A DNA stretch of 37,606 bases, from the IMG/VR virus record IMGVR_UViG_3300045988_011380; one strand, written 5' to 3'. Below are positions 1-4,247 of this stretch, piece after piece. The DNA comes from a virus. Position 1 is the first letter of the stretch; each line of letters starts with the position of its first letter. The notes under the pieces are model-generated. The model was given only the letters and a program-made list of their open reading frames with translations, was not told the origin of the DNA and did no database searches. Both the position numbers and the translations under genes were made by a program.

Positions 1-55
1 GCGATGTACTCAAGGCGAAGATTGTACCGGCGCTTCTTTTCCTGTTTTTCGTTCA
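1..55. repeat. terminal direct repeat, copy 1 (exact match to 37552..37606); assembly-overlap signature of a circular or circularly permuted molecule
   Basis: Read directly: bases 1-55 (gcgatgtactcaagg...ttttcgttca) are identical to the last 55 bases of the window. Confidence 0.95.
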
Positions 56-724
56 CGATGTCAGCTCCTTCTCATATTTGCAGTTTTTCATATCGCAGCT
101 CTTTTTATCTGCGCACACGCTGCATCCGTGCTTCCGGGTGAACTCAGCGACATCCCGCTTTACTCTAGGTCTTCCTCGCTGACATCCGCAGGAGGTTACG
201 CCGCCGGAGCGGAGATTAAAGCCGGGGAGCGTCTTCTCCCTACCGCATTCGCAGACGCAATCGAACATTCCATGTCCGGCTTCCCGTGTTGCAACGATGT
301 TCTTCCGCAGAACTGTTAGCATACCAAACCGCTGCCCCGTAAGGTCGATCAGCCGCCCCTTGCCGCCTTTCTGCCCGCATCCGCACGTCTTCTTGTTCCC
401 CGTGGTGAGCTTGCGGCGTTCAACGGAAACCTCGTTCCCGCACGCGCACCGGCAGAGCCACAGCCCGGATTCTTCCTGCCGGATGACCGTCAGTTGCCCG
501 AACACTTCCCCGGTTAAGTCCCTGCCCCGTTTCCCGGAGTTCTCCCGCGCACAACCGCAGGACTTAACCGTGTTCCCGCGCAGCTGATAGCCGGGGAGGA
601 CTTTTTCCGTGCCGCAATCGCAGCGGCAGAGCCAGTACGAGCCGTTTCTTCCGGTGTGATCGAATCGGAGAACCGTTAGCCGGTTGAACCGCTGCCCGGT
701 TAGATCAATTCGTTGTTTCATCAC
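53..724 (-). CDS. triple zinc-ribbon repeat protein, function unknown
   Basis: 223-aa ORF made of three tandem ~60-aa units. Each has LTGxxFxxLTV ... (W/F)xCxCxCG ... (S/T)CGC, a four-Cys zinc-ribbon-like pattern. The stop at 53 lies inside the terminal overlap. Confidence 0.7.
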   Translation of the reverse strand: MMKQRIDLTGQRFNRLTVLRFDHTGRNGSYWLCRCDCGTEKVLPGYQLRGNTVKSCGCARENSGKRGRDLTGEVFGQLTVIRQEESGLWLCRCACGNEVSVERRKLTTGNKKTCGCGQKGGKGRLIDLTGQRFGMLTVLRKNIVATREAGHGMFDCVCECGREKTLPGFNLRSGGVTSCGCQRGRPRVKRDVAEFTRKHGCSVCADKKSCDMKNCKYEKELTS

Positions 725-1152
725 AGCCTCCTCTTTGCGTAGAGCGCCATCAATAGAGCCTCGGCACAGCCGTCATGCTCCTTGCGGCAGCCCGGCGGGA
801 TGAGATTCACGCCGGGGAACAGCCGCTTGCAGACCTCGATGGACGTGTTCTTGTCGGAGGTGACGGAAAATTCCTTCTTCCACTTCTGCGGGCGGACAAG
901 CTCATACGGAATGCAGTAGGCTTCGAGCATCCCTTGCAGCCAGCCGAAATTTTCACCGAAGTGGAACATCGAAACGCTGCCGTTCTTCGGCATGGCGCCG
1001 ACGTGCTCTAAGCAGCACACCGCCTTTTCCCCGCGCATATCGGACAGGACGCAGCGGTATGTGTCGCGGTCATACCGGAACGTCTGGACATTCTCCCCGC
1101 TCAGAATGGCAAGGCCGCCGTTCTTGCCGGGGTCTATGCCGATATAGATCAT
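721..1152 (-). CDS. RuvC-like Holliday junction resolvase
   Basis: 143-aa ORF starting MIYIGIDPGKNGG (RuvC/RNase-H-fold Asp motif). Its start overlaps the MTase stop (ATGA). It sits in the recombination module. Confidence 0.8.
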   Translation of the reverse strand: MIYIGIDPGKNGGLAILSGENVQTFRYDRDTYRCVLSDMRGEKAVCCLEHVGAMPKNGSVSMFHFGENFGWLQGMLEAYCIPYELVRPQKWKKEFSVTSDKNTSIEVCKRLFPGVNLIPPGCRKEHDGCAEALLMALYAKRRL

Positions 1153-2774
1153 GCTTTCTCGCCTCCGAAATGATGCTTTGTGACGGCAATAGCGAACGGC
1201 TCAATCTCCGACGCCCAAATCGCCGTTCCCTTGCCGTGGATGCTTTCCCAACACAGCGGAAACCCTCCGATGCCATCAAACAGGCTGCCGAGCGTCGCGC
1301 CCTCTGGCAAATACGCCGCCATCCGCTCGAACATCCAGCGCCAGAATGGGAGCGCGATGGAGTTTCCGAGCGCTTTGTATTTCGGCGCGTCTGCTTCCTT
1401 GTGTACGCGGCCTTTCTCGTCCGTCCAGTCGCCGATGCAGACCCATCCGTCCGGGAAGCCTTGAAGCCTTGTGCATTCCAACGGAGTAAGCCGACGAACG
1501 ACCATGCGCTCCATAACGTGCTGTTGTGTGCCGCCGCTCGCATGAGCTTTCAACGTGCCGAATTGGTCTATGTAAGCGTTTTTCTCGTCGTCGATGCCGA
1601 TAACAAGGTCGGTGGCATCTTTGGAATCTCTCTGTTTGCAGGAAGAGCTAATTTCATTCTCTTTGTAATCGCCGAAAGACTGCATGGAGAATGTCAGCGG
1701 GATCTGGTTTCCGCCGGTCCCCATTCTCGCCTGCAACGACATGGACACATCTCTACTCTCGCGTATCACGTCATTCGCGTGCGTCATATCGAAGATATAC
1801 GTCTGCTGCTTCATCCCCGGCTCTGCCGCCAACGCTCCTGCAACGCCGTGAAGATCGCGCACCTCGTCGCGCTGATTCTGGGCGAACGCCATGACGGCGG
1901 GACGATCAATCGTATTCAACGTATAGCTCACGTCCTCCGTCCAGCCCTTGCCATTGCATCCGGCGGTATCGGCACGGTCTATTCCGTTGCCCTGTAAGCA
2001 GAAGATCGTTTGGTCGTTTTCGGTTCTAAGCGTTCCGCTCTTCTCCGTCTGAACTAACGCGCCTTTTCCTCCGCCGTCACATCCCCCCCGGATGCGGACT
2101 GCATAAGCAGAACAGCTTTCAGCATCTCCGGCAATTTCTTCCCGCGCCGTTCCGCCCTCCGTAAGATCCCGGCGCACGCCTTCGGCGTAAGGTTGTACTT
2201 CGGGTCGGGATTCTCTTCCAGAATCTGCGACAACTTCGTGAGCACCAGAATCTTCGGCTCCTCCGAAACGTTCAAAGAGGATGTCCCCTGCGGTGAATCC
2301 GTTAAAATCGACCACCATGCTGATACGCCGTCTGCGCTGCGGCACTCCCCAGTATTGGGCATCGTGCGTCCGCCAAGCGACGCTCCATCCGTCGCCGACG
2401 ATCCCTCCGGCTTTTGTCCACTTCTGCTTGTTTGGCAATCGAGGAAGAGAAAAGGTTGGCTCTGTGATGCGAACAGCTTCTTCCAGCACGGCGGCGAAAT
2501 CCTCTCCTCCGTTGGAACTATAAGCGCCGGGGACGTTCTCCCATGCCATGTACCTCGGTCGAACAAGTTCATTTGTCCGTCCAATACTTCGTTCATGCTC
2601 TCTCATCTCCTTGACGATTCGTATCTGTTCCATGTACAAGCCGGAACGAGCGCCGGCAAGACCCGCACGTTTCCCCGCGATGCTCAAGTCCTGGCACGGG
2701 CTCCCGCCGGTGATGCACCAGACGGGAGAGATCTCCGCGCCGTTGATCTTTGTGATGTCTCCGACGTGCTTCAT
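1149..2774 (-). CDS. DNA (cytosine-5) methyltransferase, circularly permuted (motif order IV-VI-VIII-TRD-IX-X-I-II)
   Basis: Motifs in order: GGSPCQDLS (IV), ENVPG (VI), QRRRR (VIII), RRLTPLECTRLQGFPDGW (IX), GNSIALPF (X), then LFDGIGGFP (I) and WASEIEP (II) in the last ~55 aa. AAAGGAG lies 8 nt upstream of the ATG at 2774. Confidence 0.85.
   Translation of the reverse strand: MKHVGDITKINGAEISPVWCITGGSPCQDLSIAGKRAGLAGARSGLYMEQIRIVKEMREHERSIGRTNELVRPRYMAWENVPGAYSSNGGEDFAAVLEEAVRITEPTFSLPRLPNKQKWTKAGGIVGDGWSVAWRTHDAQYWGVPQRRRRISMVVDFNGFTAGDILFERFGGAEDSGAHEVVADSGRESRPEVQPYAEGVRRDLTEGGTAREEIAGDAESCSAYAVRIRGGCDGGGKGALVQTEKSGTLRTENDQTIFCLQGNGIDRADTAGCNGKGWTEDVSYTLNTIDRPAVMAFAQNQRDEVRDLHGVAGALAAEPGMKQQTYIFDMTHANDVIRESRDVSMSLQARMGTGGNQIPLTFSMQSFGDYKENEISSSCKQRDSKDATDLVIGIDDEKNAYIDQFGTLKAHASGGTQQHVMERMVVRRLTPLECTRLQGFPDGWVCIGDWTDEKGRVHKEADAPKYKALGNSIALPFWRWMFERMAAYLPEGATLGSLFDGIGGFPLCWESIHGKGTAIWASEIEPFAIAVTKHHFGGEKA
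2057..2268 (-). other. segment of the MTase gene whose native coding frame is +1 relative to the annotated ORF (3' part of alt-frame ORF 2054..2596)
   Basis: The alternate frame reads EEPKILVLTKLSQILEENPDPKYNLTPKACAGILRRAERRGKKLP, the element that normally follows motif VIII. Third-position G+C is 47/62 in the alternate frame versus 27/62 in the annotated frame (hand count). The segment is bounded by a T3 run (2266-2268) and a G7 run (2083-2089). Confidence 0.6.
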
Positions 2775-2778
2775 GCCG

Positions 2779-3531
2779 TCAACTCCTTTCGCCGATTTCT
2801 ACGCCCAGCATTTTGCCGAGCCGTTCACGGTCATCGCCTTTTGGCTGCTGCAAAGCAAGGAGCCGTTCAAGGCGGTCTAAGTCGTCGCCATGCGGCATAC
2901 GGGCAGGAGTGGGTTTCTTCGGCGCTTCCGGCTCGTCCTTGAGCGGGAAAACACCCTGCCAGCCTCGCTGGATGCTCTGGTTGAGTATGGCGATCTTCTT
3001 ATCGTCATCACCGGGGGCGAGCTTTTCCAGTTCGGAAATCGTCAAGGCAAGGGCGCGGTCGGTAAGCGGTTTGCGCATCTTTTTCCGCATTTCCGCAAAA
3101 TCGTTCAAAGCCACATCCAGCGCGGACGCGCCTTTATGTTTTTCCTCGGTAGAGGGAAAACATCTGTCTTTGTCTTTATCCTTGTCCTTGTCTTTATCCT
3201 TGTCCTTGTCCTTGTCATTGGCTTTTTTGGGTTTCTCACAAAAGGCTTGGGTTTTTTGGGTTTCTGAATTAACCGACGGCTTTTTCGGTCTGCCGCCTTT
3301 TTTTCCGTTTTCGGACTGCCGCGCACAGAAATCGTTATAGTTGCCCTTATCCCTATCTATCTGCCACTTCATCTGCGGAAAAACAAAACGCTCGTTCCCG
3401 CGGAGGTCGGGGACTTCGCCCGTGCTGCTGTAAGTAAGCAGCGCCGTGAAAAGCCGCCCGCGCTCCGCGTCGTTGAGTTGTTCAATCGCAGTAAGGTAGC
3501 TGTGATAGGCATTGAAGCTCTCTAATGCCAT
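2779..3531 (-). CDS. putative replisome organizer / DnaD-like replication protein with a (DK)n linker
   Basis: 250-aa ORF. The N-terminus (YHSYLTAIEQLNDAERGRLFTALLTY) and the C-terminus (KPLTDRAL...ILNQSIQRGWQGVF) resemble phage replisome-organizer/DnaD-like proteins (recognition from memory). It lies upstream of the SSB gene. Confidence 0.55.
   Translation of the reverse strand: MALESFNAYHSYLTAIEQLNDAERGRLFTALLTYSSTGEVPDLRGNERFVFPQMKWQIDRDKGNYNDFCARQSENGKKGGRPKKPSVNSETQKTQAFCEKPKKANDKDKDKDKDKDKDKDKDRCFPSTEEKHKGASALDVALNDFAEMRKKMRKPLTDRALALTISELEKLAPGDDDKKIAILNQSIQRGWQGVFPLKDEPEAPKKPTPARMPHGDDLDRLERLLALQQPKGDDRERLGKMLGVEIGERS
3166..3216. repeat. 17-codon GAC/GAT-AAG/AAA hexamer array containing an exact tandem 18-mer x2 (3172-3189, 3190-3207)
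   Basis: Read directly: gtctttatccttgtcctt occurs twice in tandem within (gtc ctt/ttt)n. It encodes DKDKDKDKDKDKDKDKD. Confidence 0.9.
3223..3265. repeat. exact 14-nt direct repeat ttttttgggtttct (3223-3236 and 3252-3265)
   Basis: Read directly; 29-nt pitch; adjacent to the hexamer array and to T-runs at 3281-3285 and 3298-3304. Confidence 0.85.
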
Positions 3532-3543
3532 TGTGCGCCTCCG

Positions 3544-3924
3544 TTAAAACGGGAGCTGTCCGTCATCCTCGACATCGGCGAGCTGTGCGCCGGTGGCCGC
3601 GTCCTTGGCCTTTCCCTTGCCGCCGCAGAACCAGACGTTATCCGTCATAACCTCTGCCGCCGTGCGGTTCGAGCCGTCCTTGGCGGTGTACTTCTGCATC
3701 TGCAAACGTCCGGCAACAAGAATCATATCGCCCTTGCTGAAATAGCTTTCGATGAACGCCGCCGTCGCCTTAAATGCAACGCAGTTGATGAAGTCTGTTT
3801 CTTCCCGGTTGAAGTCACGGTCAACGGCAAGCGTGAAACGGGCTACCTTGTCGTTTTTCGTTGTGAGCCGTATCTCCGGCTCCTTCGTGAGCCTCCCTTG
3901 CAAGAGGATTCTGTTCATAGCCAT
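3544..3924 (-). CDS. ssb: single-stranded DNA-binding protein
   Basis: 126-aa ORF with an OB-fold SSB pattern (NRILLQGRLTKEPEIR...FTLAV) and an acidic C-terminal tip DDGQLPF. AAAGGAA RBS lies 8 nt upstream. Confidence 0.9.
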   Translation of the reverse strand: MAMNRILLQGRLTKEPEIRLTTKNDKVARFTLAVDRDFNREETDFINCVAFKATAAFIESYFSKGDMILVAGRLQMQKYTAKDGSNRTAAEVMTDNVWFCGGKGKAKDAATGAQLADVEDDGQLPF

Positions 3925-4247
3925 TGGTTATATTCCTTTCTGTAAATGAGATTCTTCTCGTCCCATCCGGGATACAGGGCTTTGAGATAGTCCCGGCAGT
4001 AGTTCCCGATCTCCTGCCGCATCGTTGTTGTGCCGTTGTCGAAGGCATCATGGCAGAGGCGGCAGAGGGTGAGGATGTTTTCCTCGATACCCAATCCCCC
4101 GCGGGAACGGGGGATGTAATGGGCTTCCGGGAATGCGTAAATCGACTTGCAGTAGACGCAGCAGTGGTTGTCGCGCTCCCATACGCGCTTCTTCACCGCC
4201 GGGGAGATGGCGCACGCCTTAGCGCGTTTGCTTGAGATTCTTTTCAC
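3915..4247 (-). CDS. HNH endonuclease
   Basis: Motif: CCVYCKS...EAHYIPRSRGGLGIEENILTLCRLCHDAFDNG. I prefer the GTG at 4247, preceded by GGGAGGG, over the TTG at 4268 used in the ORF track. Confidence 0.8.
   Translation of the reverse strand: MKRISSKRAKACAISPAVKKRVWERDNHCCVYCKSIYAFPEAHYIPRSRGGLGIEENILTLCRLCHDAFDNGTTTMRQEIGNYCRDYLKALYPGWDEKNLIYRKEYNQWL

Follow-up and report, generated by a model that had tools for sequence, protein, structure and literature searches.

A conserved +1 reading frame nested in a phage C5-cytosine methyltransferase gene as a candidate second methylase subunit

The viral record IMGVR_UViG_3300045988_011380 from IMG/VR, a stretch of 37,606 nucleotides (nt) analysed here at full length and called the window below, carries on its minus strand a gene for a C5-cytosine methyltransferase (C5-MTase). 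A second open reading frame (ORF) lies wholly inside this gene, on the same strand and in the +1 frame (Table 1). Comparison with relatives indicates that the +1 frame is very probably a selected coding frame, and that the annotated methylase reading over the same segment appears to be a mere shadow of it. The conserved element at the end of the nested product is most likely the entry segment of the small domain of the enzyme, the one carrying the target recognition domain (TRD), encoded out of frame. We consider it probable that the 543-nt ORF is a nested gene with a translation start of its own, coding for a methylase subunit, and that a G tract near its end toggles the enzyme between fused and split forms. 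A first-pass annotation, made from the letters of the DNA alone, had proposed that the segment is read in another frame, which is borne out. It had ranked a free-standing nested gene as the least likely of its readings, and the comparative data favour exactly that one.

Frame-specific selection and start signals

The first-pass annotation had described the nested ORF, quoted one peptide from each frame, and pointed to a TTT run, a G7 run (C7 on the plus strand) and an AAGGAG 10 nt before the ATG. Coordinates, frame, peptides and positions were all exact, and its hand counts of third-position G+C (GC3) were reproduced: 16/20 for the +1 frame versus 6/20 for the annotated frame at 2221-2280, and 47/62 versus 27/62 at 2057-2242, with recovery of the annotated frame to 14/20 at 2281-2340 and 13/20 at 1981-2040. 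The frame change is also visible in a sliding GC3 scan, in which, over approximately 2300-2100, the annotated frame lies at 0.23-0.50 and the +1 frame at 0.73-0.83.

The same change is seen in the substitution pattern. We calculated the ratio of nonsynonymous to synonymous differences (pN/pS) from Nei-Gojobori counts on the DNA of 60 distinct IMG/VR relatives. Upstream of motif VIII, pN/pS is 0.40 in the annotated frame and 1.17 in the +1 frame; in the core of the overlap, it is 1.54 in the annotated frame and 0.29 in the +1 frame. Sliding windows within the clade of the window place the crossover at ..EEPKILVLTKLSQILEE.., beyond which the annotated frame is at 0.9 or above (up to infinity) and the +1 frame at 0.24, 0.16 and 0.06. 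In this region the +1 frame of the window encodes the peptides LSQILEENPDPK, YNLTPK, ACAGILR and LPEMLK.

A search with a ‘repaired’ protein, in which the +1 segment is joined in frame to the methylase on both sides, gave 8,000 scored relatives. The 120 best, at 61-90% identity and on different metagenome contigs, all read the annotated version FGGAE.SG.HEVVADSGRESRPEVQPDAE.VRRD.PEGGTAREE.AGGAE.CS with an open frame. Since this reading is shared by homologues on different contigs, an assembly error is ruled out. The first-pass annotation had named homologues that keep the GGAEDSG..AES reading as evidence against its proposal; the frame is indeed open and similar in sequence, but the substitutions are mostly silent in the +1 frame, as the variation seen in the annotated frame (A/S/P/T, S/P/F) stems from changes at its first codon positions.

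A codon alignment of 61 divergent genes extends this picture beyond the close relatives. Up to motif VIII, third positions vary as usual. Over the next ~19 codons, both RIxLVADFGGxSAPEILFE in the annotated frame and SxLSQILExxxPxKYYLS in the +1 frame are conserved, and many third positions of the annotated frame are invariant. Past this dual zone only the +1 frame is conserved, with A, C, G, I, L, R, K, L, P and L each at 100% in ..ACxGILRRAxxRGKxLPxxLxxAL. Because both frames are conserved over the same nucleotides, and one frameshifted chain cannot hold both, two translation products are required. In the upstream part of the +1 product, only scattered positions of the deep alignment look constrained, such as the two Leu of ‘FLDL’.

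The nested frame also has start signals of its own. In each of the 68 divergent loci it extends open for 85 codons or more ahead of LSxILE (85-128 codons, in one case 183), and these upstream stretches hold 0.38 stops per 90 codons in the +1 frame versus 2.15 in synonymous-codon shuffles of the same genes. Its 5' limit is set by a TGA formed within the methylase codons for K-E-M-R (ATG AGR), and in 58 of 67 loci the first ATG follows 1-4 codons past this TGA. The annotated residues at the +1 ATG vary by lineage (HD/HE, AD, TNG, KTDG, YD, DA), and the third-position T that creates it is found in 85% of cases at these sites versus 59% elsewhere in the same genes (p=2.4e-6). Among 63 distinct genes, the KEMR codons are AAG GAG..AGA in 28, AAR GAA..AGG in 22 and neither in 2; they co-vary so that a motif resembling a Shine-Dalgarno (SD) sequence is nearly always kept. 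The AAGGAG and the ATG at 2596 in the window correspond exactly to this conserved +1 start, and in the family of the window the nested frame combines purifying selection with its own start signals. A second candidate for a universal start, the ATG found at ‘DAQ’ within motif VIII (window, MPNTGEC; phage P1, MPNTSEW), was rejected, as the M is present in only about half of the lineages.

Identity and distribution of the +1 element

The identity of the element can be read from split-type proteins, in which the +1 frame continues through the TRD and motif IX. Here, SRLSQILEE.. aligned from position 187 of PF00145 and position 184 of TIGR00675, after motifs IV-VI and before motifs IX-X. These alignments uphold the first-pass proposal that the +1 peptide corresponds to the element following motif VIII of ordinary C5-MTases. 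The repaired window protein scores 5 bits higher against PF00145 than the protein as it is, with two additional matched stretches. An AlphaFold2 (AF2) model of the +1 peptide has three helices, with a predicted local distance difference test (pLDDT) score of at least 90 over approximately residues 60-90 and disorder upstream of the core. Pfam, PHROGs and NCBIfam hold no family of its own for the +1 product, and there is a weak touch on phrog_16143.

The element has the consensus LSxILE..KYxL[ST]xKACxGILRRAExRGKxLP. A word-indexed protein search with a 61-amino-acid (aa) +1 peptide returned 35 short ORFs, called as proteins of 67-107 aa, and missed the long split-type proteins. Two of the matches (L005, L008) come from unrelated elements; they sit in the +1 frame, with a start near motif VII/VIII, within ordinary C5-methylase ORFs that are not permuted. 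A scan of one genome per GTDB species yielded 80 loci at 31-63% methylase identity, and in 67 of them AC.G[IL]L.R occurs in the +1 frame exactly 76 nt past the Q of QRRRR. The loci include canonical as well as permuted motif orders and isolates of Clostridia and Bacilli, among them Blautia schinkii, Lachnoanaerobaculum saburreum and Heyndrickxia shackletonii, and, with complete genomes, Sellimonas catena and Anaerocolumna sp.

The element also occurs in phage records. A tblastn search found it in 125 phage records, with hosts in Vibrio, Mycobacterium, Streptococcus, Pseudomonas, Pasteurella and Escherichia. In phage P1 (L220, AF234172), a +1 ORF of 163 codons at 2159-2650 lies inside dmt (1861-4125), encodes the peptides YFLSSK and SLPPLLQMALQSVAK and ends in ..MPNTSEWHNDADACLLSQVLEQTSIPQRYFLSSKACAGILRRGEKRRKSLPPLLQMALQSVAKA; the P1 record carries no annotation of it. 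In Mycobacterium phage Schatzie (cluster J; L219, MK524521), the DNA methylase gene with the +1 element (327-1850) has an HNH endonuclease gene inside it and is annotated ‘coding region not determined; unable to determine intron boundaries’.

By exhaustive profile search of 1.84 billion representatives, the element was traced to 4,744 clusters (50% identity). The best 150 matches were sorted by a simple motif scan: 76 are of the nested type and end no more than 60 residues past the core, 17 are of the split type, 48 are long with no visible motif IX (many of them probably cut by contig ends), 7 sporadically fuse the N-part of the methylase with the +1 frame, at various points, and in 2 the core was missed by the classifying motif pattern. 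The canonical in-frame order of motif VIII, ILFE and LSxILE occurs in none of these 150 matches. Exact look-up in a collection of 15 billion proteins returned neither the nested product of the window nor that of P1. Six proteins with the methylase N-part fused in frame to the +1 ORF at differing points (P0185, P0190, P0204, P0206, P0217, P0256), in P0190 by the loss of one G from TGGGGAG inside motif VIII, are probably sporadic frameshift alleles or errors.

The G tract, the T3 run and an 84-nt duplication

The G7 tract, 27 nt before the +1 stop codon, is the sole G/C homopolymer of at least 7 nt in the window. With a DNA pattern across the tract, 120 IMG/VR loci were retrieved, and 125 loci were classified by frame and tract length. 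They fall into two architectures that differ by a 69-nt insert. In the short architecture, the motif-VIII frame is continuous with CDGGGKGALVQ.. at G7 (45 loci and the window) and the +1 frame is continuous at G8 (19 loci); in the long architecture, the motif-VIII frame is continuous at G6 (~10 loci) and the +1 frame at G7 (16 loci). Overall, the motif-VIII frame is continuous in ~69 loci, the +1 frame in ~40 and neither in 6, so the two phases with full coding capacity make up ~95% of the classified loci. The two architectures favour opposite length changes, +1 in one and -1 in the other, which mutational bias cannot explain, whereas selection for two productive phases can. Interrupted tracts (GGGGTGG, TGGGGGG) are mostly found in the fused phase.

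Among the relatives, the tract can be G6, G7 or G8 on contigs whose 800-nt flanks are 100% identical, the kind of repeat-length change expected of phase-variable genes. In G8 relatives the +1 frame reads ..LKAVLLMQSASGGGCDGGGKGALVQ.. / ..MQSASGGGCDGGGKG.. and the alpha frame (the annotated methylase frame) stops right past the tract. The ‘repaired’ junction ...LLMQSASGGGCDGGGKGALVQ... that the first-pass annotation had constructed by adding one G is a natural allele, carried by G8 relatives such as L017, L210 and L212. These three and L230 are split, and the window allele with its G7 is fused and differs in this from a split enzyme of the M.AquI type. In L230 (ERZ1026846.2394), a metagenome relative of the window type, alpha ends with TAA directly past GDILF, which indicates that the annotated-frame linker is dispensable. 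Since two of the three tract phases are fully coding, the pattern is not one of ON/OFF switching; rather, the tract appears to be a real, fast-changing switch of enzyme architecture.

Further G8-G9 (or C8) tracts occur in Gly-rich TRD motifs (RMGTGGG, KPGGGGKG) of four GTDB loci (L204, L154, L159, L170), in which the methylase frame breaks right past them. This suggests that the methylase family has several homopolymer switch points or error-prone sites.

The first-pass annotation had taken the T3 run and the G tract as the two bounds of the frame switch and had listed a G-tract phase switch among its readings. The G tract stands as a true switch point, but the T3 run is not conserved: L227 has CGA TTC and L230 has TTT TAA TGT at this place. 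A +1 ORF that starts at 2596 needs no junction at T3. The signs of programmed frameshifting, namely a conserved slippery site and mutually exclusive frames, are missing at the first junction and in most relatives, respectively.

An 84-nt tandem duplication (2178-2327, minus strand) accounts for the apparent junction. In the lineage of the window, motif VIII and the core are 84 nt further apart than in most relatives. The single 66-nt dual zone of those relatives has 50-59% nt identity to window positions 2327-2268 and 58-71% to the segment 84 nt downstream, with a null 99th percentile of 0.41. Copy 1 seems to keep the frame-0 function (the strand after motif VIII and ‘ILFE’), and copy 2 keeps the +1 reading, TKLSQILEENPDPKYNLT. 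The duplication parted the two readings and thereby produced what looks like a junction near T3; in the window lineage it appears to have relieved the overlap of the two functions.

Interpretation and relation to known systems

On the explanation that we favour, a nested gene for a methylase subunit, two products would be made from one DNA: alpha (541 aa) and beta (180 aa, +1 frame). Beta would be translated from AAGGAG-N10-ATG at 2596; its first ~120 residues would be free to vary, and its last ~45 would form the strongly conserved three-helix element. Residues ~170-220 of alpha would act as an unconstrained linker. Most likely, beta associates with alpha to complete the enzyme, in the manner of the M.EcoHK31I beta chain, although we infer both the association and the need for it in methylation. 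At G7, the motif-VIII frame would run on and give a fused alpha with a short beta; at G8, the +1 frame would run on and give a short alpha with a long beta (element, TRDs, IX, X, I and II), similar to M.AquI. Fused and split forms both appear viable, and the tract switch may carry a regulatory meaning.

More tentatively, and as a possibility that we rate just short of probable, the arrangement could apply to thousands of phage and prophage C5-MTase genes including P1 dmt: the overlapping +1 gene would supply an obligatory trans-acting piece of the small domain, and poly-G tracts in the Gly-rich TRD motifs of some lineages would reversibly re-wire the TRD carrier, making the architecture, and possibly the specificity, of a multispecific methylase phase-variable.

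Several observations weigh against the nested-subunit explanation. The first ~120 residues of the +1 product are without protein-level constraint in close relatives, an unexpected pattern if the start lies this far upstream; the SD-to-ATG spacing of 10 nt is rather long; and in the clade of the window an internal GGAGGAG-N12-GTG just before the core is another possible start. The assignment of the element to solved enzymes is weak: hhalign places it on residues 291-337 of E. coli Dcm, directly past motif VIII, at E=0.056 only, a profile of the +1 peptide had chance-level matches alone among PDB sequences, and a Foldseek search of its model against the PDB gave nothing better than E=4. The AF2 model of the 541-aa alpha, based on 22 close homologues, has a pLDDT of 27.5 and thus offers no docking argument and no structural check for a vacancy in alpha. 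Finally, the tract heterogeneity is one between contigs.

A different role is also conceivable, with the +1 product being a small protein unrelated to the methylase subunits, such as a basic, helical regulator that binds DNA and acts on the methylase or on phage development. In favour of this, the core is short, highly basic and built of three helices, no solved methyltransferase was matched by sequence or fold, and Pfam, PHROGs and NCBIfam lack a family dedicated to the product. We nevertheless regard this as fairly unlikely, as the element is found in C5-MTase genes only and at a fixed distance from motif VIII, two curated C5-MTase models put it right past that motif, and in a large minority of loci, including the G8 relatives, it is covalently fused to the TRD-IX-X part. 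Recoding into one chain, proposed in the first-pass annotation as slippage-dependent +1 then -1 decoding, would involve a +1 shift of ribosomes near CGT TTC (2266-2268) and a -1 shift on G7, or RNA polymerase slippage on G7, and would give the canonical ...GDILFER-SEEPK...LSQILEE...SASGG-GCDGGGKG... with the junction peptides ILFERSEEPK and SASGGGCDGGGK. Such a chain is conceivable in the clade of the window, where the segments are sequential after the duplication; moreover, G GGG GGG permits perfect -1 re-pairing, the post-slip product is encoded exactly by G8 alleles, and the TTT TAA of L230 is a possible +1 shift-at-stop site at the first junction. What makes recoding unlikely is that most relatives need both frames over the same 19 codons, so it cannot be the ancestral mechanism, that the first junction lacks a conserved shifty site, and that the open upstream +1 codons and the conserved SD and ATG would be left unexplained. 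To our knowledge, two efficient shifts within one gene are also without precedent.

Two further readings take the +1 frame as secondary or as noise. Classical ON/OFF phase variation of the methylase, with +1 conservation as a by-product, would account for the different tract lengths between identical flanks, for the standing of the tract as the sole long G/C run in the window and for the other G8-G9 tracts with frame breaks in relatives. It is very unlikely, as the abundance of the two coding phases means that the architecture is toggled and the gene is not turned off, and in the greater part of the family, P1 and the majority of GTDB loci among them, the nested ORF occurs with no G tract. That the arrangement is an artefact or a decaying relic, through assembly errors or an old compensated double frameshift with an uneroded +1 signal, we consider extremely improbable. 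All of the 120 best homologues do keep the annotated frame open, with a superficial similarity in sequence, and a double frameshift with scrambled residues, also put forward in the first-pass annotation, does fit the anatomy of the annotated frame. Yet the +1 frame is no relic: it is under strong purifying selection, with pN/pS of 0.06-0.3 and invariant residues at 31-50% methylase identity. The companion proposal of two homopolymer assembly errors is refuted, as hundreds of independent assemblies, along with complete isolate genomes, show the arrangement.

The methylase itself is a member of its family, matching PF00145 with 113.1 bits (cut-off 22) and TIGR00675 with 101.9 bits (cut-off 100.65). 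Motifs IV (PCQ), VI (ENV), VIII (QxRxR), IX, X and I (FxGxG) all lie in the annotated frame. They do not follow the canonical order from I to X; instead, the order is IV-VI-VIII-TRD modules-IX-X-I-II, which is shared by the 120 best homologues and found in many genomes. Motif X precedes motif I here as in the natural circularly permuted C5-MTases M.BssHII, M.Alw26I and M.Esp3I. In natural permuted C5-MTases, the break was described as always lying in the variable region (IX-X-I..VIII) (PMC5944983). Unlike this M.BssHII-like (type H) break (PMC5944983), the break in the window lies between motifs II and III/IV and looks like a different natural topology. Elsewhere in the window, the ORF upstream of the methylase (2779-3531, minus strand) contains a low-complexity (DK)n run, and an ORF at 53-724 (minus strand) contains three tandem repeats of a Cys-rich unit, LTGQRF..LTVL...W.C.C.CG.

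Table 1. Features of the methylase locus in the window (positions from the first letter of the window)
Feature	Position	Strand	Remarks
C5-cytosine methyltransferase ORF, ‘alpha’ or ‘fused’ form	1149..2774	-	541 aa; annotated frame
Nested +1 ORF, ‘beta-short’	2054..2596	-	180 codons, 543 nt; ATG 2596-2594, TAG 2056-2054
SD-like AAGGAG (2612-2607) and TGA (2605-2603) closing the +1 frame before the ATG	2603..2612	-	within methylase codons K-E-M-R
Copy 1 of the 84-nt duplication, RISMVVDFNGFTAGDILFER	2268..2327	-	probably keeps frame-0 function
T3 run, proposed first junction	2266..2268	-	no functional site
Annotated-frame linker FGGAEDSG...GDAES	2115..2267	-	open, unconstrained (pN/pS 1.4-1.5 in the 60 relatives, 0.9 to infinity in the window clade); apparent ‘shadow’ of the +1 core, read out of frame
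Conserved core of the +1 product, KLSQILEENPDPKYNLTPKACAGILRRAERRGKKLPEMLKAVL	2108..2236	-	pN/pS 0.06-0.24 in +1 frame, >=0.9 in annotated frame
G7 tract (C7 on plus strand)	2083..2089	-	sets which upstream frame enters TRD-IX-X-I-II; in the window the motif-VIII frame continues
Motif IX of alpha, RRLTPLECTRLQGFPDGW	1496-1443	-	annotated frame
Motifs I (GSLFDGIGGFPL) and II (WASEIEPFAIAVT)	1179..1289	-	C-terminal end of methylase ORF; circular permutation

Finally, we would like to set the locus beside known systems. The closest precedent for a small second polypeptide nested in another frame of a methylase gene is M.EcoHK31I, which we compare by its published description: the alpha gene contains, in a different frame, the coding sequence of a beta chain that is needed for activity, can use internal starts and carries motif IX (PMC2836561). 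The beta of M.EcoHK31I and that of the window would each carry a conserved methylase element that the long frame lacks. In M.EcoHK31I this element is motif IX, whereas alpha of the window has its own motif IX and the nested product has the element after motif VIII; also unlike M.EcoHK31I, the arrangement is family-wide (~4,700 clusters, including P1 dmt) and has a dual-constrained zone. M.AquI is a split C5-methyltransferase (PMC5944983), and the G8 relatives and others with a ‘long beta’ have their break at this same point, with alpha ending past motif VIII/ILFE and beta comprising TRD-IX-X. In contrast to M.AquI, the two genes share an overlap of ~130-180 codons, each in its own frame, beta of the permuted subfamily also has motifs I-II, and the window is fused. 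As in phasevarion-type mod genes and the poly-G genes of Helicobacter and Campylobacter, the length of a poly-G tract within the gene changes faster than the flanks are substituted. Unlike in those genes, the choice is between two complete coding architectures and not between ON and OFF, and the gene belongs to a phage of gut Clostridia. The literature that we could search contains no description of the family-wide nested ORF or of a phase-variable phage C5-methylase.

Should activity depend on beta, then many ‘orphan’ C5-methylases of phages are wrongly annotated as single chains, and codon-optimised or recoded synthetic copies would silently lose the second gene and yield inactive or altered enzymes. 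The finding bears on methylome prediction, on annotation of the REBASE type, on phage engineering and on methylases as tools. As the ORF is present in P1 dmt, the hypothesis is directly testable in E. coli. With its 19-codon dual-constrained zone, a duplication that may have relieved the overlap and a homopolymer that seems to flip fused and split forms, the locus offers a clean natural case of long same-strand dual coding in a double-stranded DNA phage.

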